From an uncultured virus (IMG/VR IMGVR_UViG_3300011785_000002) (lineage: Duplodnaviria > Heunggongvirae > Uroviricota > Caudoviricetes): 20,000 nt of DNA. Shown in pieces: positions 417 through 15,939 of this stretch. Made by a program: the position numbers and the translations under genes. Positions within the stretch are counted from its first letter, which is position 1. The number at the start of each line of letters is the position of its first letter. Location: the IMG/VR virus record IMGVR_UViG_3300011785_000002, positions 56,343 through 76,342 of that record; one strand, written 5' to 3'. Under the pieces are notes generated by a model, which was given only the letters and a program-made list of their open reading frames with translations, did not search any database and had not been told where the DNA came from.

Positions 417-1151
417 TCATAAAGTTTCTAAATAATTTTTCACTTGCTGGGTTGAATCATAGTGGCTCAGGATACGATCACAATGTTCTTTTGCCCATCG
501 GATCCACTCCAACTGGTAGTGGCAGTCGACTGTTGCATTGTGCGCTTCATCTTCTTTGCCTTTGTCACGGATCTTTGCGTAGTCATTGAACAACCAGTAC
601 ATTTCAGTATTCGCACCCAAAGGTAGTGGGTATTTATACAAGGCATAGAACACATGCTCAAACATGCTCATTACATAAGTTTTCATATCCATCACTTCAC
701 GGTAGTGGAAAGGACTAGGCACCTGATATTCCTGATACAAACCATCCAGGAAGGGATAGTCAAAACCTACCGGCTTTGCCCAGAACTGTGTCTTGACCTG
801 GCCCTTTGACTTGACCCCATTTACTTGATTCAAACACCATTGGTAGGTTTCAAGTAGTGCTTCATTCATGGGTTTAGCAGCATTCACACCTTGAAGAATA
901 TAATTCAAAACATCACGACGTTCAGGTTTTTCCCACCACTCTACCGTAGACGGATTTGGTTTACGCCCTTTTCTGATCTGTTCATTCAACGGAAGAAAAA
1001 TCTCAAACTCGTCCTTTGCCTCAAAAGTTTTTGGGTCAAAAGAAACCAGTGCGAGTTGCAGCACTGGTGTTGTATTTGGGGTAGTTCCTAATGTTTCACA
1101 GTCAAACATAATGGGAACGTATTGTGTATCAAGGCTGCGAATAGTAGTCAT
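417..1151 (-). CDS. DEDDh 3'-5' exonuclease (Rv2179c/ExoVIII-like phage family)
   Basis: Motifs FDCETLGT, FWAKPVGFD, REVMDMKT, AHNATVDC; start reassigned to ATG 1151 (GGAG SD 6 nt upstream), overlapping the end of the resolvase gene. Confidence 0.88.
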   Translation of the reverse strand: MTTIRSLDTQYVPIMFDCETLGTTPNTTPVLQLALVSFDPKTFEAKDEFEIFLPLNEQIRKGRKPNPSTVEWWEKPERRDVLNYILQGVNAAKPMNEALLETYQWCLNQVNGVKSKGQVKTQFWAKPVGFDYPFLDGLYQEYQVPSPFHYREVMDMKTYVMSMFEHVFYALYKYPLPLGANTEMYWLFNDYAKIRDKGKEDEAHNATVDCHYQLEWIRWAKEHCDRILSHYDSTQQVKNYLETL

Positions 1152-1608
1152 AAAGCTCTCCGGTGGTCCATGGGTATTTCTTAATAGTTTCAACGCTGAT
1201 TGATTTTTTACCTGCTTGGAGTGCTTCTAAAATCTCAAACGATGGAACCAAATATAAATTTTCTTTGTCTTTTAAAAATTGAAAGACAATAAAATAAGGG
1301 AGCTTTAAGTTATATGCTCGTTGCATACCTTGAAGCTGCCCTTTCTGGAAAGTTGACTTTATATTAAAACTGGTCTTGGTGGCAAGTGTTTCTTTTGATT
1401 CAATATAAAAAGTATTAGGTAAAAACTTTTCCAAAGCAACATCACGGCCCAGGCTAACAATATGGTCGCAGGGTCTGGTGTCTTCATAATTACCAGTGTC
1501 GTATTTGTCCGGAAGTCGTTGAATATCGACGCTAAGTTTGTAAGCTTTACGAAGCATACGAACCACTTGGTTTTCTGTAGATTTTCCTGAAGGGCGAAGC
1601 ATTGCCAT
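1129..1608 (-). CDS. Holliday junction resolvase, RecU-like PD-(D/E)xK nuclease
   Basis: GKSTE N-terminal helix, PCD...YIESKE motif, GQLQGM, replication-module context; GAGGA SD. Confidence 0.78.
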   Translation of the reverse strand: MAMLRPSGKSTENQVVRMLRKAYKLSVDIQRLPDKYDTGNYEDTRPCDHIVSLGRDVALEKFLPNTFYIESKETLATKTSFNIKSTFQKGQLQGMQRAYNLKLPYFIVFQFLKDKENLYLVPSFEILEALQAGKKSISVETIKKYPWTTGELYDYYSQP

Positions 1609-1997: not shown

Positions 1998-4559
1998 CTA
2001 AGCTGCTTTTCTTTCAGTCAAATAGTTCAAAATAAGATCCCTTTCCTCACTACTCGCTCGTTCTTCCCAACGTTCTTTAGGAATACACGGAACACCTTTC
2101 TGAATCTCATGCAATTCAATTTGTCCATAAGGAGCCTGAACAGGGTCGAATGGTTGGAAGGTGTAACCGACGGCTACTGAACTATCGATTTTCACGTTCG
2201 GGAACAGGTCACTGTCCTGAATCATTTCGTTATACAGGAAATCACAAAATGCTGCAACTTCTTGTTTTTTAACGGAAAATAATAATTCATCATGAATAAG
2301 GAGCATGAAACGTGCACTAAACCCTTGTTCCTGAGCATTATTCACAGTACGGATAATGGTTCGTTTCGCCAAAGCAGCACACATCCCTTGGATTGAGAAG
2401 TTCACAGCCTGGTTCAAAGAACGACGATGAATACGACGCATTGCTTCACGTGCAAAGCTCATGATTGCGTCTGACTCATAAGACATAAATACCTCTGTCA
2501 TCAAATCCGACCATTCCTGGGTTGCTTCAAAACGTACCCGAGTGTGATGGTCACCAAGCTTGATAAACCCACGGTTTTTGACCTGTTCCTGGACACCTAA
2601 ACGCCAGGATTCCGCAACTGGGAATTCACTTGTGTAGCCTTTTACAGCTTCTGCAGTACGGTCCATATTCCAGCCCATTTCGTCAGCGATTGTACCTAAC
2701 CAACCAGAATACCAATAACCGAAGTTTGCCACTTTACCCAGCACAGTACGGTAGAATTTTTTATCTGGCAATTCAGAAAATTCTTCAACGGACATACCCA
2801 AGATACCGGCAGCTGCCTTACTATGTAAATCTTTATGCGGTCGTTGCGAATAGGCTGCCAACATTGCCGGATCCTGGCTGTTTGCTGCCACACCTACCAA
2901 TTCAATAGCAGACCAATCGGCTGAAACAATAACACTATCCTCGTCATCCGCCAGGAAGAAGCCACGGACGAAGACCGAATCACCACGCTTGGCCAACTGT
3001 TGTCCGTTTGGTGACGAACAACTGGTTCGACGTGTCGCCAGCATGGACGTCATTTGTGGGTGCATCAACCCTGTTTCTGGATCTACCAAACATAGGTATG
3101 GCGTGATATACAGCTTGAACGCTTGTTCTGCAGAAGCAATTTTCGCGTAAGCTTCCAATAACGGATGCCCTTCCTCAAACTCTGCCAACATCGCTGCCCG
3201 GGCATCTTTATCCGACTGGATCTTGCCACCGGTTGCTTTGCAAGGTAAATCAAAAATCACAAACATTACATAGCGCATGGCCATGTAGTGGTTAATTGAT
3301 AACTGAGCACTTGGTTTAGCGTTCATACCTAGACGGTCTTCAATCCATGCGTTGCTTGGGGCACACTTCACCTGTGTAGCGATTGAATAGCTATCCAGAT
3401 TATCTGGTGATTCAATCCACTGCTTAAATAGACGATAGTATTTTTCATGAGAAGCTGGTTTATACCATTTCTCGTACTTTAATAACTTTTCGTGCATTGG
3501 AGGCATTTCATCTGGGAAATGTTCCCGGACTGCTTTTTTAAGATCCAGCAAGGATTCCGTAAAGGACTCACGCATCGTATCACGACGCATTAAAATTTCC
3601 TTTCGGTTGACTCGCATACCGCCAATGGTGGTTTCAGCAAAGATCCGGGTGATTGGATTCTCTGTTGATAAATAGGTGCCAATCACATCTGGATTTACTT
3701 GCTGTAAGTATTGGTAGACACGGAAGAATAAACGATAGGCCCAAATAGCATCGTCGGCACCATATTCCAGCACTTGTGCAGCTGTTAATGCTTCCATGTC
3801 ACATTCATCACCAAGCGTGTCTTTAAACTCAGCCATTTGGTAACCGAACCAGGATTTGACTGCTTTCTTTAAACCATAACCGTATGAAATATCTTTCACG
3901 ATCCCTTCATAGGAATGTGTCGCTTTCCCAGACTTTGCACAGAACTTGCCTAAGACTTCTTCCTGTTTAAAGGTGAGTTTACCTTGCTCATAATTTGAAA
4001 ACTCACGTTCAATTTCCGGAATCAGTGGTTTAATTCCGCGAAGGACCGCAGCCTGTAAATTATTCTTGTGATATTCATCTGGATTATACGCAGTCACACA
4101 TAGCTGCATAGAACACAAAGTATTCGGCAACACCTGATCGTAACTACCACGATGCACACAATATTCATAAGGTACGTTATGAATGATCAACGTATCGTTA
4201 TGTCGCTTGGCTGTTTCCATCCATTTAAGCAGGTAGGAAATATCAATGGTGTTTTGTGTGTCGGCATGGCCGAAGTTAATGTAGAAAGCTTTATCAGGAT
4301 GTGTTTTACCGAAGTAAAAAGATGCACCTGTAATTTTGGTGCGTTTGAAATCAAACAATAACTTTTTACCATGGGAGAAGCCTTCATCGTCCACCTTCAT
4401 CAATTTCTTGATGCCTTCGTGAGCGTCTCTTTGTGAGGTCTCTATGTCGTAACCTATTAAATTGTTTGGTGTTTTTACTTGTTCCATGAAAAAAACATCC
4501 CAATCCTGTATGTTATTTCGGTCAACAAGTATGTTCTGCACCGGTGCGTGGTAGTCCAA
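1998..4559 (-). CDS. DNA polymerase family A with N-terminal 3'-5' exonuclease domain
   Basis: ExoI YDIET, ExoII HNVPYE, ExoIII YGADDA; TRRTSCSSPNGQQ; motif A DWSAIEL, motif B R..GKVANFGYWY, motif C IHDEL. Start set to TTG 4559, 7 nt after AAGGAG, rather than 4607. Confidence 0.96.
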   Translation of the reverse strand: MDYHAPVQNILVDRNNIQDWDVFFMEQVKTPNNLIGYDIETSQRDAHEGIKKLMKVDDEGFSHGKKLLFDFKRTKITGASFYFGKTHPDKAFYINFGHADTQNTIDISYLLKWMETAKRHNDTLIIHNVPYEYCVHRGSYDQVLPNTLCSMQLCVTAYNPDEYHKNNLQAAVLRGIKPLIPEIEREFSNYEQGKLTFKQEEVLGKFCAKSGKATHSYEGIVKDISYGYGLKKAVKSWFGYQMAEFKDTLGDECDMEALTAAQVLEYGADDAIWAYRLFFRVYQYLQQVNPDVIGTYLSTENPITRIFAETTIGGMRVNRKEILMRRDTMRESFTESLLDLKKAVREHFPDEMPPMHEKLLKYEKWYKPASHEKYYRLFKQWIESPDNLDSYSIATQVKCAPSNAWIEDRLGMNAKPSAQLSINHYMAMRYVMFVIFDLPCKATGGKIQSDKDARAAMLAEFEEGHPLLEAYAKIASAEQAFKLYITPYLCLVDPETGLMHPQMTSMLATRRTSCSSPNGQQLAKRGDSVFVRGFFLADDEDSVIVSADWSAIELVGVAANSQDPAMLAAYSQRPHKDLHSKAAAGILGMSVEEFSELPDKKFYRTVLGKVANFGYWYSGWLGTIADEMGWNMDRTAEAVKGYTSEFPVAESWRLGVQEQVKNRGFIKLGDHHTRVRFEATQEWSDLMTEVFMSYESDAIMSFAREAMRRIHRRSLNQAVNFSIQGMCAALAKRTIIRTVNNAQEQGFSARFMLLIHDELLFSVKKQEVAAFCDFLYNEMIQDSDLFPNVKIDSSVAVGYTFQPFDPVQAPYGQIELHEIQKGVPCIPKERWEERASSEERDLILNYLTERKAA

Positions 4560-4630
4560 TTCATAACTCCTTAAGTTATTTTTGGTATAGAAAAAGGACA
4601 GTAGCAATTGCCCTGTCCGTTGTTACATCT

Positions 4631-4660
4631 AAGATAGTTCATTTGTCACTTGAAAGTCAA
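4631..4660 (-). promoter_or_regulatory. sigma70-like promoter for DNA polymerase
   Basis: TTGACT-18 bp-TATCTT directly after the terminator at 4662-4684. Confidence 0.55.
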
Positions 4661-4661
4661 C

Positions 4662-4684
4662 AAAAAACCCAACTGGAATTGGGT
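4662..4684 (-). terminator. rho-independent terminator
   Basis: ACCCAAT-TCC-AGTTGGGT-TTTTT on the minus strand. Confidence 0.75.
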
Positions 4685-4998: not shown

Positions 4999-5421
4999 TT
5001 ATTCTTTAAGTTTATCAATCTCTTTGTTCATACTTTCACGGATTTCATCCAGGTATTTTTGGTGTTCTTCAAAATCAAAACCCACACCTTCCAAATGCTG
5101 CCAAACATTTTCAGCGTGAGTTTTGTAGTGTTGGGCTTTTTCTAAACCTTCCGATGGTACTTTACCCATCATGGCCAACATAAAAATATCGCTTGCAAAC
5201 AGGCTTTCTTCTAACACATCAACTGAAGACATATTTATCTGTCCGTCCAGGATCACTTCCATGCTTTCTATTTTGGCTTGATTGTTTGGTAGCAAACCCA
5301 TTGTTGCAGTAAACATAGTCAGAACCGGTTGGGTTCCTTGCTGTTTGAAAAGCATATTGGTTTGCAGAATATTCATTGCACGTTCTGCAGCTGACATAAG
5401 CGGTGCTAGTGTTTTAGCCAT
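4999..5421 (-). CDS. hypothetical protein (140 aa)
   Basis: ORF with AAGGA SD, natural helical composition. Confidence 0.8.
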   Translation of the reverse strand: MAKTLAPLMSAAERAMNILQTNMLFKQQGTQPVLTMFTATMGLLPNNQAKIESMEVILDGQINMSSVDVLEESLFASDIFMLAMMGKVPSEGLEKAQHYKTHAENVWQHLEGVGFDFEEHQKYLDEIRESMNKEIDKLKE

Positions 5422-5442
5422 TGGTAGGTTCCTTGTGTTATG

Positions 5443-5466
5443 AAAAACCCCAGACAGTGTCCGGGG
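5443..5466 (-). terminator. rho-independent terminator after the tRNAs
   Basis: CCCCGGAC-ACT-GTCTGGGG-TTTTT. Confidence 0.75.
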
Positions 5467-5491
5467 TTGGGTTTATTTTCGTGGAATAAAC

Positions 5492-5567
5492 TGGTGCTCA
5501 AAGTAGGACTCAAACCTACGACCTGATGCTTACAAGGCAACTGCTCTATCAACTGAGCTATTCGAGC
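5492..5567 (-). tRNA. tRNA-Thr(UGU)
   Basis: Cloverleaf: acceptor GCTCGAA/TTTGAGC, D stem GCTC/GAGC, anticodon loop CTTGTAA, T arm GTAGG-TTTGAGT-CCTAC, encoded ACCA. Confidence 0.95.
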
Positions 5568-5572
5568 TAAAA

Positions 5573-5648
5573 TGGCTGCCTCAACACGGTTCGAACGTGT
5601 GACCAACGGATTAACAGTCCGGTGCTCTACCAACTGAGCTATGAAGCA
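5573..5648 (-). tRNA. tRNA-Asn(GUU)
   Basis: Cloverleaf: acceptor TGCTTCA/TGAGGCA, anticodon loop CTGTTAA, T arm ACACG-TTCGAAC-CGTGT, encoded GCCA. Confidence 0.96.
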
Positions 5649-5658
5649 ATAAACTTTG

Positions 5659-5865
5659 ATTTACTTAAAGGTACGTTCTCCGATTGGTTGACTAGACCAG
5701 TCTAGGTTTTCGCAACAGTGATAATTAGTCACCCTTACTTTGGGTACAAACCTTTGAAAATGCCCTCATTCAGTAGTGCTTACTTCCTAGCTTCATTGGG
5801 AGATTAATCCCTCCACTATTACCTACACACCTTCTGGTTCGTCGAGAACGCACCTTTAAGTAAAT
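5659..5865 (-). ncRNA. candidate structured ncRNA (ncRNA-2, ~207 nt) closed by a 22-bp terminal stem
   Basis: Inverted repeat 5659-5680/5844-5865 (21/22 identical; the difference is a G-U pair on the minus strand) enclosing several short hairpins; no ORF. Confidence 0.7.
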
Positions 5866-6222
5866 TGGACATAGAATGTGATTAAGATTCCTTCTGGATC
5901 CACTACAGTATCCAAAGCCTTGTCCAAGGCTAGTCAGCGGAAGTTAATGTAGTTGCTTACATTACCTGGGTCTGTGTCCGTGACAGTGATTAAGTCACCA
6001 GCTACCTTTTAACGTCAATTAGGCTACCGACAGGATTTCATTTTAGGCTACTTTACTGCTTTATTAGTACAGTATTCAGCTCCTAAAACTACTCAGCCTT
6101 TTTAAGAAGAACTTAATCTTCTTAGTCCAACAAGGATTGACTTAGTCTGACGTAAGATTGAAACCTTGCTGGCTAAGAAAATCAAAACACCAACCTTGCG
6201 GTTAGTGCTTCGTTCTCTATGT
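5866..6222 (-). ncRNA. candidate large structured ncRNA (ncRNA-1, ~357 nt)
   Basis: Starts at the predicted TSS; 5' ACATAGA pairs with 3' TCTATGT followed by CCA; GCAA-tetraloop hairpin; several long helices with minus-strand G-U pairs; no ORF. Confidence 0.72.
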
Positions 6223-6227
6223 GGTTG

Positions 6228-6257
6228 ACTATACAGATGTTCATGTGATCTCGTCAA
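6228..6257 (-). promoter_or_regulatory. sigma70-like promoter for the ncRNA/tRNA operon
   Basis: TTGACG (6252-6257)-18 bp-TATAGT (6228-6233). Confidence 0.65.
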
Positions 6258-6360
6258 CATCATTTTTCTGGTCTTTTTTACGCTTATGTTTGTCTATAAG
6301 ACGAATACCTATGTAAAACAAAGCCTTAACTATATCTACAGCAAGTTCTCGTTTGTTCAT
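6241..6360 (-). CDS. 39-aa cationic amphipathic peptide, putative lysis accessory
   Basis: Read manually: AGGAAGGA SD, then MNKRELAVDIVKALFYIGIRLIDKHKRKKDQKNDVDEIT*; directly after the endolysin; below the ORF-track length cut-off. Confidence 0.7.
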   Translation of the reverse strand: MNKRELAVDIVKALFYIGIRLIDKHKRKKDQKNDVDEIT

Positions 6361-6389
6361 TTTTTATCCTTCCTATTTTTCTGTAACAA

Positions 6390-7115
6390 TCAACGACCTT
6401 TAAAGTAGCGTACTGCTGCAGCCAATTTACCATGATAGTCGTTTTTAGCGTAGAGTTTACCATTGTACATCTGGGCAAAAGGACGACAAGCATCTGGTTT
6501 TTCAGATAAAGCCAGGAATTTAGACTGCCCTCGGTTCATTTCAATAAATGATACTAATAAATCATACTGGGCTTTTTCCGTGTGCGTACATGCGTAAAGC
6601 ATTTCCCATGGGGTTTTGTATCCCATCTGAATATAATATTCACCCATTACCTGGAAGGCACCCATAGACACGGCCATAAAAGCAGCACGTGGGTCATACT
6701 GACAAGCATGGATTAATTTATCGTAACTGTCATTGACGCCATTATTATCTGCGTCTGTTGTGTAATTTCCCCATGATGGGTAATTAAAGAAAGTAGACTT
6801 CGGTGCTGACACGTCATCATTATGTGCCCAGAACTTGTGGCGTTCATACAGGATTTTAGGCATACCATCATTGAACCAGCCTGAGCCATTGGCCTCTACC
6901 TTGGCCACGGCCTTGATCCGGACAGTGTCTGTGTCACCTAAACGACGTGCTAGTTGGAATTTTTCTGATTCAGAAATGGCTGGAGCTTTCTTATTTCGGA
7001 AGCAAGCTAAGATCGCGTCTTTCGAACCGCGGCCGATGATTCCATCAATGGCTCCAAAATAGAATCCTTTATCCTTCAGGAATTGTTGAAATTCCTTGCG
7101 CGTTTTTACAGACAT
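6390..7115 (-). CDS. modular endolysin: N-terminal peptidoglycan-binding domain + N-acetylmuramidase (DUF3380-type)
   Basis: QQFLKDKGFY..IDGIIG (PG-binding); AVAKVEANG, PKILYERHKF, SMGAFQVMG, FAQMYNG..Y..KL motifs. Confidence 0.92.
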   Translation of the reverse strand: MSVKTRKEFQQFLKDKGFYFGAIDGIIGRGSKDAILACFRNKKAPAISESEKFQLARRLGDTDTVRIKAVAKVEANGSGWFNDGMPKILYERHKFWAHNDDVSAPKSTFFNYPSWGNYTTDADNNGVNDSYDKLIHACQYDPRAAFMAVSMGAFQVMGEYYIQMGYKTPWEMLYACTHTEKAQYDLLVSFIEMNRGQSKFLALSEKPDACRPFAQMYNGKLYAKNDYHGKLAAAVRYFKGR

Positions 7116-9121: not shown

Positions 9122-11374
9122 TTATCCTGAAAAGTTAAATTTGTTGTCTAGGAAGACAATACGTTGTTTCACCCACTCCATAACATCTGGAAAACTGGTA
9201 TAAGCAAGTGAGGGTAAAGGCCATTTTTGGTATTCCAATTCTAACAATTGGGATGGGTACATATCCATTAATACTTTCATATTTTTATAAATATGATCTA
9301 CAGTAAATAAACCATTTCTACGCAACTCTGCATATCTAGCTTCAATATCTGAACGATAAGCCACATAAACCTTAGCCCAGAAATCATTTCCTTGGAAGGT
9401 GTCAAAATTGGGTGGAAAACGTCCTGTTGTCCCATCAAAGTCTAAACCATAGGTCATGTCCAAATCATAAGGCATGATAAACCATTTGGTTCCGTCCCAT
9501 GTGATGAATTGCAAGTTTTTAAATACAAAATCAGCCCCTGCTAAAAAGTCAGCGAAGCAGTAATAATCTACTACGTTGTTTTTATCTAGGTATGTATTTT
9601 TCTGAGCAGTAAAATCAGCTTGTGGTAAATTAGCAAAAGTCAACCAACGCTGTTTGTTTGCTTCTGCACCTGCACCCCAAGTTGATGGTGCTTTAACATC
9701 AATAGCTTCTGGTGATAATGTTGATAATGAAGTAATACCGCCAATGTCGAAGTGAATTTGATTTTGGTTATTTTTGGCAATGTTATAGTTGCCACGTTTT
9801 TTACCAATGCCGATACAACCTACACCATAGAAGCTACCATTGATGTAGACCACTGTTGGATATTGAATTGGATGACCTGTTGCACCAGTTTCCATAGCTG
9901 CAGCACCAGTTTTACCTACATAGGTGTGGTCAATATCACGCTTTGGATAACCTTTACGAGTATCCATTACTTGTGCCCAAAGATTATAATTTGACATCAT
10001 TCGTACTTGAATGTGATCAATCCAATTGGCTTTGAATACCCAAGTGCTGTGACCCATTACTCGACCAATTTTTAGTGATGCTTCCGTTTGGAACTCAGGG
10101 TCTGTGAATAGATCAAAGGACCAGTTTTTCTTTGGGAAACCTGCAGAAGAAGAACCTTGCACACCAAACTCGGTGAATGCGGAAAACTTAACACCATCTA
10201 CAGTAATAGCAAATTTACCATTGATTGTTCCTTGATCCTTACTTACTGGTAAGGTCATTTCCGTTTCTATGTCAATGATGGTGATGCTTTGTGGTGCTTG
10301 TAATTCAAATAAGTTTTTACCTAAATTACGTGCTTCGGAACCACCTGTTCCTCCTGAACCTCCTGAGCTTGTACGGATACCTATGATTGCTTCTGTCACA
10401 ACATGGCTCAACATAGTAAGTGCAGTTTCAAACTTAATATTATTTAAACGAGTATCCGCTTCTAATTGAGTTAAGATTTGCTGTGTAAACAAGATCGACG
10501 AAGTAAATTGCTCCCCTTGTTTAGTGATTTTATTATCGAGATCAGCTAAAGCTGAAATCACAATATGTTGAAACAACAAGTCTTGAACTTGATCTTCTAA
10601 AACATTGTCTCCAATATCTGAAACTGTTTGCACCAGTTTGTTATAACTTACGACTAAGCCTGAGATATAGTTTTCATGTTTATCAAGGAGTTTTCGCAGG
10701 GAATCAACATGTTCTTGTAACGCTACAAGCGCATCATTATCTACATCTTCACTGATTAGATGTTCATTGAAAGTTTGAACAAATATATGAAAGCTAAGAA
10801 CCAGTGAGGCTAGGGAATTACGTGTGATCATTATTTGCTTATCAACGTATGCTTTAGTCAGGGTGAGCGAATCATACTGAGACTTGGTCAAGGTCGTTGA
10901 TTCTGCTGTTGCTTTATACCATAGTCCTCCGTTAGCATCCTCACCAACCTGGACAGGCTGATTAACCTCTAGGTTTGCAATATCCGCATTAGCTTCTGCC
11001 AGTGTTGGGTAGAACTTTGAAGCTTGTGTACTAAGCTGAGATAGAGCAGTGACAACATAATCCATTAGTGCTGAATCTTGTGAATCCACATAGGTATTAT
11101 CAGCTTTATTTCTAGTCAATAACAATTCAGCTTCTATAGCTCTTTTTTCTTCATTATTCAATCTTTGAATAATTTCTTCAATTTCTTCTTCTCGTCCTTC
11201 AGCTGCTAATTCTCTAAGCATCCCCACAGTTATTGCTTCATTTCCAGCATAATTTGATGGAAAGTTACCAGCTACGAGTTTGATTTGATCAAAAGCATCC
11301 GGGTCTGCAGGTAAATTACTTGGGGTTGTGAGGTCTTTTACAGACCGGGCATGTATATTGGTTAATTCGGACAT
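9122..11374 (-). CDS. tail fibre/spike-type protein with C-terminal CotH kinase domain
   Basis: N-terminal tail-attachment-like segment (YPTLAEANADIANL), coiled coil, SSGGSGGTGG linker, then CotH motifs QGSSS..PKKNWS, WVFKANWID, YINGSFYG, D..KN, WFIMPYDLDMTYG, WVKQRI.FLD. Confidence 0.78.
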   Translation of the reverse strand: MSELTNIHARSVKDLTTPSNLPADPDAFDQIKLVAGNFPSNYAGNEAITVGMLRELAAEGREEEIEEIIQRLNNEEKRAIEAELLLTRNKADNTYVDSQDSALMDYVVTALSQLSTQASKFYPTLAEANADIANLEVNQPVQVGEDANGGLWYKATAESTTLTKSQYDSLTLTKAYVDKQIMITRNSLASLVLSFHIFVQTFNEHLISEDVDNDALVALQEHVDSLRKLLDKHENYISGLVVSYNKLVQTVSDIGDNVLEDQVQDLLFQHIVISALADLDNKITKQGEQFTSSILFTQQILTQLEADTRLNNIKFETALTMLSHVVTEAIIGIRTSSGGSGGTGGSEARNLGKNLFELQAPQSITIIDIETEMTLPVSKDQGTINGKFAITVDGVKFSAFTEFGVQGSSSAGFPKKNWSFDLFTDPEFQTEASLKIGRVMGHSTWVFKANWIDHIQVRMMSNYNLWAQVMDTRKGYPKRDIDHTYVGKTGAAAMETGATGHPIQYPTVVYINGSFYGVGCIGIGKKRGNYNIAKNNQNQIHFDIGGITSLSTLSPEAIDVKAPSTWGAGAEANKQRWLTFANLPQADFTAQKNTYLDKNNVVDYYCFADFLAGADFVFKNLQFITWDGTKWFIMPYDLDMTYGLDFDGTTGRFPPNFDTFQGNDFWAKVYVAYRSDIEARYAELRRNGLFTVDHIYKNMKVLMDMYPSQLLELEYQKWPLPSLAYTSFPDVMEWVKQRIVFLDNKFNFSG

Positions 11375-14355: not shown

Positions 14356-15939
14356 TTAACCTACCTTTAAATAATCCATACTCAAACCACCTAAAGCATC
14401 ATCGTGATTTGTAGTTGCTTTAGGGAAATAAATCACTGGGTTGTCCGGGTTGGCTTTGTTACTGCTTTTAGAGTTGTGATGGACTGCCCACATCACATAT
14501 TGATCAGCGGTTTCTTCATACTCCAAAACAACAATACGAAGTGGTTCTTTACGAACACCTCGCTTTGCCCTGGCCACGGCTTGTAAAAATTCATCGTCAC
14601 CATAGTTTAAACTGTGGAAAATTACAGTATTGACATGCCCCCAGTTAAAACCGATTCCGGCTGTTGCTGCAGAACACACCACAATATCTAAATTACCTCT
14701 TTGGAACTCCAGGTCGATGTTATTACGACGATTTTGTGGAACACCACCATGAATAACACCTACCTTATATTTCTTGGATGCCAGGTACTCTGCAATTTTT
14801 TCTATTTCTGCCGTGAATGTGCCGAAGATAATGAGTGGTTCACCTTCTTCTGCGTACTCCAGGATTCGGTCAAGCTTTGGTGTAACTCCATCAAAGATAT
14901 TGGCTTTCTCGAACTTGATCGGATTTCCTTTAAGATCCCAGTCAATTGGTAAATTGATTGCGTGAGGATGTGCAAGCATTTGTCTAATTCGGAGGCTGTT
15001 TGTACCTCCTGTTTTTGCTTCCAGGACAATCTCTTTAATTTCCGCAATCCCTTCCTGTTCAAATTGGTTGTAGATTTTGGCAACTTTTTCCTCCATTGGT
15101 AAAGCATCCCGGATGATAAACTCCGGAACATCACCATACATATCTTTGGTGGTCCAACAGATAGAATAATTTTCCAGAAATGTTTTCAGAATGTGATGGT
15201 TTTTCCACTCCATGACCGATCCGTATTCATCAAGATCAGCATGGGTTCGCATAAAGAAATCTATTGTTCCGTAGTAGCTTTTCTGGATCATGTGAGCATA
15301 AATATAAGCCCCCTGCAATTTCCCACGTGGGGTTGGGGTTGCAGTCATGAAATTAACACGGTTCCAGTCTGGGGTATTAAAGACGAATGCTTGGGTACGT
15401 TTACTATTGAACCCACGGTAATATAGATGGGGTTCATCACAAATCACTTGAACAATATCTGTAAACTTGGAACGCATGTCTCCAATATACTTAGCATAAG
15501 CCTCTGCAGTCATTAACCACACAAGCGTGTTTTCATCCAAAGATATTTTGGTACGTTGATTATGAGTGCCTTTCACAATCTTGACCTGATCCGGTTTTAG
15601 ATCAGGGTTCCAGTCCAGTAGTTCTCTTTGATTTTTGTTAAGCAAAGAACTCGGTTGAATCCAAATGATTCGACATGAGAGCTGCCCTTTGGTTACGTTG
15701 AACGCTGAAAAACGATTAGCTCTGATCCACGAAGTTAAGGAGGTCGAAGTCAACGTCCCACTCAGCTGTAGCTTCTGTTCTAGCGTCTCCGGTGTCATTC
15801 TCAATAAGAATCCGGTCAGAGCACAATGCGGTGCTGTTTTCCCCGTCCCGGCCTGGGATCTGTCCAGGAAGCGGTGGTTGATAATTAGATGTTGAAAGGT
15901 CTTGATCTGTTTCTCTCTCAACAGTAGCGGTTCTGACAT
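14356..15939 (-). CDS. superfamily 2 DNA helicase (DExH)
   Basis: LREKQ Q-motif, GTGKT, DEPH, TATP, IHGG, GIGFN, QAVARAKR; GGAGG SD. Confidence 0.92.
   Translation of the reverse strand: MSEPLLLREKQIKTFQHLIINHRFLDRSQAGTGKTAPHCALTGFLLRMTPETLEQKLQLSGTLTSTSLTSWIRANRFSAFNVTKGQLSCRIIWIQPSSLLNKNQRELLDWNPDLKPDQVKIVKGTHNQRTKISLDENTLVWLMTAEAYAKYIGDMRSKFTDIVQVICDEPHLYYRGFNSKRTQAFVFNTPDWNRVNFMTATPTPRGKLQGAYIYAHMIQKSYYGTIDFFMRTHADLDEYGSVMEWKNHHILKTFLENYSICWTTKDMYGDVPEFIIRDALPMEEKVAKIYNQFEQEGIAEIKEIVLEAKTGGTNSLRIRQMLAHPHAINLPIDWDLKGNPIKFEKANIFDGVTPKLDRILEYAEEGEPLIIFGTFTAEIEKIAEYLASKKYKVGVIHGGVPQNRRNNIDLEFQRGNLDIVVCSAATAGIGFNWGHVNTVIFHSLNYGDDEFLQAVARAKRGVRKEPLRIVVLEYEETADQYVMWAVHHNSKSSNKANPDNPVIYFPKATTNHDDALGGLSMDYLKVG

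Follow-up and report, generated by a model that had tools for sequence, protein, structure and literature searches.

A previously uncatalogued structured RNA family, represented by a 207-nt cassette beside the tRNA genes of an uncultured tailed phage

The stretch of DNA analysed here (the window, 20,000 nt) is the last 20 kb of a 76,342-bp virus record, IMG/VR IMGVR_UViG_3300011785_000002, with an estimated completeness of 93%. The minus strand carries nearly all the genes of the window and, at positions 5659..5865, a 207-nt structured RNA cassette, which is delimited by its closing helix, by its folding relative to shuffled sequences, by an alignment of seven copies and by a covariance model (R1). 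These 207 nt represent a conserved structured RNA family that was previously uncatalogued and occurs in a single phage clade only. Selection has acted on the fold of the minus strand, which also carries the adjacent tRNA genes, and the element is a dispensable cassette that moves within its operon between relatives. It is very probably a functional structured RNA.

The locus and the fold of the element

Comparisons with PHROGs and Pfam assign the surroundings of the element to a tailed-phage replication and lysis region containing a family A DNA polymerase, a helicase, exonucleases and an endolysin. On the minus strand, the endolysin gene (7115-6390) is followed by a 39-aa open reading frame (ORF; 6360-6241, found by ORF scan) and then by about 590 nt without any ORF longer than 53 aa. 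The 207-nt element is the final part of this non-coding stretch and contains no ORF longer than 29 aa. After a 10-nt spacer come the genes of tRNA-Asn (GUU; 5573..5648, minus strand) and tRNA-Thr (UGU; 5492..5567, minus strand), both identified with ARAGORN and Rfam, and a terminator at 5468-5443. One ORF lies between this terminator and the DNA polymerase gene, which places the element about 1 kb upstream of the latter.

The ends of the element, 5659-5680 and 5844-5865, are arms of 22 nt each that are 95% complementary and enclose 163 nt. They form a closing helix of 22 bp, of which 21 are Watson–Crick pairs and one is a G.U pair on the minus strand. The lone deviation, A5673 opposite C5851 on the plus strand, is thus a G.U pair on the presumably transcribed strand, as an earlier note on this DNA had claimed. 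The predicted fold of the minus-strand RNA has an energy of −72.1 kcal/mol, compared with −46.3 ± 3.7 kcal/mol for shuffled sequences (z = −6.95; none of 200 shuffles was as good), and the plus-strand fold is weaker (−61.8 kcal/mol, z = −5.23). Together with the 10-nt spacer, these values bear out the description of an RNA of about 207 nt with a 22-bp terminal helix directly 5′ of tRNA-Asn.

A scan of the whole genome (76,342 bp) for long closing helices found at least 22 paired positions at two loci only, 5659-5865 and genome positions 14,853-14,997. The second locus belongs to another non-coding gap, 514 nt in length and located outside the window (genome 14,850-15,100, minus strand), which holds a rod-like hairpin of about 145 nt with 25-27-bp arms and an adjoining 60-nt hairpin. 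The fold there reaches −80.3 kcal/mol (z = −9.36); its hairpins match neither an Rfam family at the gathering threshold nor model R1.

The RNA family and the strand of selection

The closest cultured relatives of the phage are five Acinetobacter baumannii siphophages, TCUP2199, fJoAci01, EAb13, fJoAci04 and Mystique, whose DNA polymerases are 69-71% identical to that of the window. Further relatives were three IMG/VR contigs and three loci from a scan of a metagenome collection with the endolysin, which gave no more than these three, two of them too short to reach the region of the element. A blastn comparison found no similarity between the window element and the Acinetobacter phages. The search for long closing helices found in each of these five phages a module of 206-208 nt, closing helix included, with the same architecture. 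The family accordingly comprises seven copies, one per genome: that of the window, that of an IMG/VR contig (L009) and those of the five siphophages. Conserved blocks are clear in their alignment. The window copy is matched by R1 on the gene strand over its full length (model positions 1-215; 195.4 bits, E = 6e-63), a score that is high by construction since this copy is one of the seven building sequences. It has the 21-23-bp closing helix of the family and the invariant blocks GAC, GGUU, AACC, UAGUCA and GAGAA.

RNAalifold resolves the alignment into eight helices with 57 pairs, 34 of which show compensatory double changes. Closing helix P1 (5′ arm 5844..5865, 3′ arm 5659..5680, minus strand) is 21-23 bp long in all seven copies; its 21 modelled pairs are paired in 100% of cells, and nine of them have changed on both sides. 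Helices P2-P5 constitute a variable 5′ domain (5771..5836, minus strand), in which 5836-5834 pair with 5773-5771, 5829-5827 with 5779-5777, 5820-5815 with 5791-5786 and 5811-5808 with 5801-5798. This domain is the least conserved part of the element, and in one metagenomic variant about 160 unalignable letters stand in its place. The P6 hairpin (5741..5766, minus strand; helix 6 of the alignment) has a near-invariant loop, UUUUCAAAGGUU (5760-5749), the GGUU of which is invariant in 7/7 copies. The P7 hairpin (5712..5738, minus strand) has ten pairs, eight of them changed on both sides, and a divergent contig from an independent metagenome (run X9) adds two more compensatory pairs to it, 5719+5731 and 5721+5729. 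The last part (5682..5710, minus strand) consists of the invariant AACC (5708-5705) and the P8 hairpin, in which four of four pairs covary. For P8, the relatives support a pairing of GACTGG with CCAATC (5702-5697 with 5687-5682); the UAGUCA of its loop (within 5695-5686) is invariant in the alignment. Two of the hairpins named in the earlier note are present in this comparative model, GGGA/TCCC (5811-5808/5801-5798) and GTGA/TCAC (inside 5738-5712). The third, CTAGAC/GTCTAG, is present in the window but is not conserved.

Standard pairs occupy 95.2% of the 398 cells of the model, compared with 79.9% after column shuffling (0/500 shuffles reach the observed value). The shuffle control overstates the significance because only about three independent lineages are represented. 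The second control does not depend on the number of lineages: when the 3′ partners were slid by 1-3 columns, only 33-43% of cells remained paired, and the number of pairs with double changes fell from 34 to 3-11.

Two further comparisons concern the strand. Scores of model R1 are 159-243 bits for the gene strand, compared with 22-31 bits for its complement. In the closing helices of 15 helix-closed modules from the window and its relatives (described below), the positions that are not Watson–Crick pairs comprise 22 G.U, 4 A.C and 10 others on the gene strand; helix extension in this count treated G.U and A.C alike, and one of 16 anchors failed on a bulge. A hand tally that takes each distinct site once gives about 15 G.U versus 2 A.C. 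A repeat acting as duplex DNA predicts equal numbers of the two, so the excess of G.U over A.C on one strand argues that pairing was selected on the tRNA strand. The strong covariation and this excess uphold the proposal, made from the window alone, of selection at the level of RNA.

Since G.T pairs also stabilise hairpins of single-stranded DNA, the strand asymmetry by itself is not exclusive to RNA. A single-stranded-DNA replication structure beside the replication genes (an origin, a primosome assembly site or a single-strand initiation site) would also agree with a non-coding element about 1 kb upstream of a DNA polymerase gene. Nevertheless, the element lies inside a tRNA transcription unit, its position in the array varies and it contains no iterons; moreover, it is absent from two 100%-complete relatives (G002 and G003) and from the near relative L014, which is unexpected for an origin. 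This explanation is therefore highly improbable.

Searches for known families agree with the novelty of the RNA. With Rfam 15, the two tRNAs were the only matches in the window at the gathering threshold, and relaxing the limit to E up to 10 added no other match in 5600-6400; the remainder of the genome was without a match at the gathering threshold, and six relatives, searched at E up to 1, gave only tRNAs and sub-threshold hairpin noise. ARAGORN, applied to the region of the window, detected tRNA-Thr and tRNA-Asn and no tRNA or tmRNA in the element. This agrees with the earlier note, which could match the element to no tRNA, tmRNA, RNase P or SRP RNA. A tRNA or tmRNA was rejected on the same evidence. 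A 6S RNA was rejected as well: there is no 6S match at E up to 10, and where a 6S RNA would be a rod with a central bubble, the element forms a multi-branch junction of seven inner helices, so the 6S-like reading of the note does not hold.

The proteins encoded in the genome were scanned for possible partners. The scan covered 94 of the 99 ORFs that encode 60 aa or more; the remaining five are two ORFs that cross borders between loci and three in the window, one of them overlapping the tRNA genes. It detected no reverse transcriptase, RNase III, Ro/TROVE, RtcB, integrase, transposase or invertase. With regard to retron a1/a2 arms, the element has a 22-bp terminal inverted repeat, a feature that is not specific; a retron RNA was rejected, and the retron-like reading abandoned, as no RVT family is found in the scanned ORFs of the 76-kb genome.

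In a blastn search of 50,697 phage records, the region of the window is matched through its tRNAs only, and the element alone has no match; the fJoAci01 copy finds only the five Acinetobacter phages. Pattern scans of IMG/VR returned only the two contigs already known and two chance matches that were rejected by the model. A pattern scan of 185,579 prokaryote genomes gave 30 loci, of which the model confirmed none. Five more distant phages, with polymerase identities of 34-42% (Achromobacter phages JWF and 2-1, Pseudoalteromonas phage KB12-38, Caulobacter phage Seuss and Xylophilus phage Lumi), do not match R1 anywhere in their whole records (0/5); the same search method recovered the copy of genome G001. 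In the genome papers of TCUP2199, EAb13 and Mystique, the words 'non-coding', 'noncoding' and 'intergenic' are absent from the main texts, to which the word search was confined, and the matched passages do not mention an ncRNA.

Operon context, neighbouring modules and movement of the cassette

The element is apparently one cassette of a promoter-to-terminator operon of stable RNAs, in which it would be co-transcribed with tRNA-Asn and tRNA-Thr. All units of this operon share one orientation. A sigma-70-type promoter, TTGACG-18 nt-TATAGT (6228..6257, minus strand; 10/12 matches), overlaps the end of the 39-aa ORF. The motif TTGACG-17/18-TAnnnT occupies the equivalent place in L014, L009, L010 and fJoAci01, that is, in five lineages including the window. 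Since the hexamer lies in another reading frame in L009 and in non-coding DNA in L010, the motif is not kept by a protein.

The leader between the promoter and the cassette is itself structured. It includes hairpin M1 (6112..6186, minus strand), with a stem of 15-16 bp, which is conserved in L014 and L010 and in L009 is enlarged to a 91-nt module closed by 24 bp. It also includes a core, UAGCCUAAU..GAC..AAAAGG..GUGACUUAAUCAC, predicted to form a hairpin (5983..6027, minus strand) and conserved in the window, L014, L009 and L010. The leader joins the cassette at the motif AUGUCCAAUUUAC (5860..5872, minus strand), the equivalent of which adjoins tRNA-Asn directly in L014 and L010. Soon after the predicted start of transcription, a terminator-like hairpin is predicted (6183..6212, minus strand). 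At the matching place in the Acinetobacter phages (L006, ~1557-1581), about 85 nt downstream of the conserved promoter, there is a much stronger hairpin with a U-run. The two hairpins may represent an attenuator, a short leader RNA or the site at which transcription of the upstream lysis genes ends. A stretch of 33 nt at window positions 6202-6234 (minus strand) is 73% identical to the 3′ end of the cassette and 75% complementary to its 5′ arm; it overlaps the −10 box and the predicted transcription start, and the sequence of L014 differs there. It may have remained from an earlier cassette or may offer an alternative partner for pairing. The predicted intrinsic terminator of the unit (5443..5468, minus strand) is a 10-bp GC-rich hairpin with a U-run. 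A hairpin-plus-U terminator follows the last RNA unit in five lineages (window, L014, L010, L009 and fJoAci01), the sequences being different.

In the Acinetobacter phages, the 1.4 kb after tRNA-Asn are unannotated or annotated as tiny hypothetical ORFs. Here lie the tRNA-like units X and Y, both of which possess a T arm, an acceptor stem and CCA. Three modules of the same region are each closed by a helix of 23-28 bp; they measure 86 nt, 206-208 nt (the family member) and 145-164 nt (the '148-nt module'). L009 has three additional helix-closed modules around its family copy. The closing helices of the neighbouring modules in relatives are 22-28 bp long, with the modules of L009 reaching only 15-24 paired positions in an unbiased count. 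In the Acinetobacter phages the closing helices share the ends CCAAUAUUUA/UAAAUGUUGG with a constant U.G pair, and this motif is concentrated in the region in question within genomes of 77-82 kb; in TCUP2199, 4/4 forward copies (CAATATTTA) and 3/4 reverse copies (CAACATTTA) lie within 1.5 kb. Several modules begin their 5′ arm with CCA, which is also the 3′ terminus of the tRNA-like unit before them and pairs with UGG at the 3′ end of the module. A resemblance of the shared helix ends to attC sites (integron cores), judged by eye only, is weak; no integrase was found in the scanned ORFs, and this candidate was rejected.

The tRNA-like units are 130-190 nt long, with a GGTTCGATTCC-type T arm, an acceptor stem of 7-8 bp, CCA and large internal insertions (L006 ~1838-1998 and ~2003-2133, L007 1892-1971, L014 ~5340-5530). 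The unit of L014 stands in place of the tRNA-Thr of the window. None of them is called by Rfam at E up to 1, and ARAGORN calls one only, in EAb13, as 'tRNA-Pyl cta'. Their presence in the arrays of relatives raises the question of whether the 207-nt element is a degenerate or intron-bearing tRNA-like gene or the remnant of a small group I intron. However, no tRNA, tmRNA or group I intron model matches it at E up to 10, ARAGORN finds nothing in it, it has no GGTTCGA-type T arm and a 22-bp closing helix belongs to neither class, which leaves this origin scarcely credible.

The cassette is not present in all relatives. The endolysin of L014 is 97% identical to that of the window and the leader 90%; there, however, the leader motif ...AUGUCCAAUUUAC runs straight into a different tRNA-Asn, with no cassette between them. 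The segment absent from near relatives is 211 nt long (5650..5860, minus strand) and is flanked by TTTA at 5864-5861 and 5653-5650. Run X2 contains a contig with the element and also the joint 5649->5861 that skips 5650-5860, with four ambiguous letters (TTTA on both sides); the joint is seen in a single contig, whose shorter side measures 24 letters. The borders of the indel are offset from the ends of the repeat, as L014 retains the first 6 nt of the 5′ arm and is without the 10-nt spacer. In the complete (100%) relatives G002 (L010) and G003 (L011), no copy of the cassette was found anywhere in the genome.

Such presence and absence between near relatives, the 4-nt TTTA flanks, the long inverted repeat and the varying order of cassettes among relatives would fit a DNA-level element, that is, a miniature inverted-repeat mobile element or a recombinase or inversion site whose terminal inverted repeats are the 22-bp arms. 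On the other hand, seven inner helices covary too, which a transposase-binding repeat does not explain, and G.U exceeds A.C (22 versus 4) on one strand. Each carrier genome has a single copy, with operon and orientation the same throughout, and 0/30 pattern-matched loci in the prokaryote genomes were confirmed; the indel borders lie off the repeat ends in L014, with a microhomology of only the four nucleotides TTTA, and the scanned ORFs include no transposase, integrase or invertase. A miniature inverted-repeat transposable element was rejected on these grounds, and a DNA-level explanation in general is very unlikely.

The position of the cassette in the operon varies. The order is leader-207-tRNA in the window and in L009, and tRNA-Asn-X-(Y)-(86)-207 in the Acinetobacter phages. 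Among the latter, TCUP2199 has leader-X-Y-86-207, fJoAci01 shares this order except that tRNA-Asn follows the leader, the 86-nt module of EAb13 stands between X and Y, and Mystique has tRNA-Asn-X-207 only. The cassette occurs without tRNA-Asn in TCUP2199 and in one contig of run X1, and tRNA-Asn occurs without the cassette in L010 and L014. According to the EAb13 announcement, TCUP2199 is without the tRNA (PMC10508131). The tRNA-Asn gene behaves as a presence/absence cassette as well: a metagenome contig of 8.8 kb passes over window positions 5565-5644 and retains both the 207-nt element and tRNA-Thr.

These arrangements bear on whether the element is an RNA in its own right or a cis-acting 5′ leader of the tRNA precursor, controlling the transcription, maturation or stability of tRNA-Asn and tRNA-Thr. 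The latter would account for the end of the element 10 nt before tRNA-Asn within the same promoter-terminator unit; in relatives, the pairing of the CCA of a preceding tRNA-like unit with the UGG of a module end means that such helices could gate 3′-end processing. Nevertheless, the cassette is upstream of tRNA-Asn in the window and L009 and several hundred nucleotides downstream, behind other units, in the Acinetobacter phages; each of the two is found without the other; and eight helices with invariant loops exceed the needs of a processing signal. The varied position and the mutual occurrence of one without the other point to an independent RNA, and a cis leader is unlikely. The proposal of the earlier note that this is a novel phage ncRNA stands as far as a structured non-coding element without an Rfam match is concerned; what it missed is the operon context, the arrays of modules and the dispensability of the cassette.

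A possible route to a released RNA and comparison with known RNAs

The best explanation of the element is a gene for a structured ncRNA that is transcribed along with the tRNAs, excised at its closing helix and active in trans; taken as a whole, this explanation has an even chance of being right. Transcription would start at the promoter (6257-6228) and proceed through about 360 nt of structured leader, the cassette, tRNA-Asn and tRNA-Thr to the terminator (5468-5443). P1, two turns of uninterrupted duplex, would then be a processing stem for the RNase III of the host, as in rRNA operons, because it has the helix length that this enzyme needs. The length required of an RNase III substrate is about two turns, or at least 20 bp of near-uninterrupted duplex; P1 has 22 bp with one G.U and is paired in 7/7 copies. 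The suggestion of the earlier note that the stem recalls RNase III substrates is thus retained as the best mechanistic lead, on the strength of helix length; cleavage of P1 by RNase III is conceivable, with somewhat less than an even chance. The cassette would thereby be freed from the leader and from pre-tRNA-Asn, and what remains of it would be a stable core of about 165-185 nt. In this core, the invariant unpaired blocks UUGAC, UUUUCAAAGGUU, AACC and UAGUCA may form a tertiary fold or a binding surface, with GGUU:AACC and UUGAC:GUCAA as possible tertiary contacts. The released RNA would act in trans on a partner from the host or the phage, in an accessory and not an essential function. Of the two roles put forward in the earlier note, an anti-defence function is possible but unlikely, and that of a decoy is possible.

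The sole candidate RNA-processing protein seen in the genome is a 258-aa protein (window 417-1193, minus strand) with an Rv2179c-like 3′-5′ exoribonuclease domain (Pfam E = 1.6e-20), labelled an exonuclease in PHROGs. Judged by its sequence, it could be either a DNA proofreading exonuclease or an RNA-trimming enzyme.

Several points weigh against the explanation of a co-transcribed and released RNA. The seven copies amount to about three independent lineages, with an effective sequence number of 1.51. A terminator-like hairpin (6212-6183) stands between the promoter and the cassette, and a strong one is found there in the Acinetobacter phages, so that read-through or another, unrecognised promoter must be assumed. 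Transcription of the cassette is deduced, as the sequencing runs that hold the stretch are available as contigs, which cannot show strand, ends or level: one contig of run X9, from wastewater labelled as RNA (the label is a guess and the material may be DNA), spans the element, and the contigs of transcriptomic run X15 cover only the tRNA-like parts and 6039-6270. Cleavage by RNase III is argued from the length of the helix only, and the phage itself has no RNase III gene among the scanned ORFs. The proposed tertiary contacts consist of invariant bases and are thus beyond testing by covariation. Finally, the existence of complete relatives without the cassette means that any function is conditional.

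Among known RNAs, the nearest in setting are species 1 and 2 (rnaC/rnaD) of the phage T4 tRNA cluster. These are small stable RNAs of 100-200 nt and of unknown function that are processed from a common precursor with tRNAs and matured like tRNAs. The element shares with them the condition of a phage-encoded structured RNA beside tRNA genes. It differs in being closed by a 22-bp helix, in lying in a helix-closed array and in being shuffled as a cassette; Rfam 15 has no model of the T4 RNAs for comparison.

ROOL RNAs are about 580 nt long. Together with GOLLD RNAs, many of which exceed 800 nt, they are described as encoded by phages and prophages, 'often near tRNA islands', with complex folds supported by covariation, no protein partner and unknown function (Kretsch et al., bioRxiv 10.1101/2024.12.08.627333). 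The element, in contrast, measures 207 nt, and the leader as a whole about 590 nt. It is matched by the Rfam model of neither family at E up to 10, and nothing suggests multimeric cages; this identity was rejected.

In rRNA operons, the processing stems of RNase III are long helices that flank a stable RNA, there the rRNA, in a polycistronic precursor which also holds tRNAs. Intervening sequences of 23S rRNA are sporadic among close relatives and dispensable, and the excised piece is discarded. The element resembles them in its long flanking helix and in being a sporadic, dispensable unit; unlike them, the enclosed piece is a conserved eight-helix RNA, and cleavage is here a prediction. Y RNAs and YrlA are of broadly similar size, have 5′ and 3′ ends that form a long stem, occur in some phages and are tied to tRNA-like modules. 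This candidate was rejected too, as Rfam at E up to 10 shows no such RNA in 5600-6400, the scanned ORFs include no Ro60/Rsr (TROVE) gene and the element contains no tRNA-like domain.

The element is thus a real and new RNA family, a cassette-like form of the stable RNAs of phage tRNA operons. A broader proposal, which we regard as doubtful although not far-fetched, is that it is a unit of an undescribed class of exchangeable helix-closed RNA cassettes, which phages line up with tRNAs and tRNA-like units in operons devoted to stable RNAs. Their closing helices, many of which pair CCA with UGG, would then follow common rules both for processing and for the exchange of whole units by recombination, and the RNAs within would be interchangeable accessories, directed for instance at host defences that target tRNAs or RNA. 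In most annotations, a phage tRNA cluster consists of tRNAs with empty spacers or spurious small ORFs; at least one such spacer is a conserved, elaborately folded RNA with the behaviour of a movable cassette. Should these rules hold generally, current annotation would be missing a widespread class of accessory RNA genes in phages. Four of the carriers are cultured therapeutic-candidate phages of a genetically tractable host, which makes the function of the RNA and the role of its closing helix directly testable.

A few features of the surrounding genes may be added. L014 has an extra ORF of about 145 codons (~4236-4672) between the endolysin gene and the small ORF, which the window is without. 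In the Mystique record, the DNA polymerase gene (L005 5037-7630) is split into four annotated parts and takes five separate tblastn matches to be covered, which points to frameshifts or sequencing errors there. The window also encodes a 750-aa protein with a CotH kinase-like domain (Pfam E = 1.4e-14) at 9122-11374 on the minus strand.

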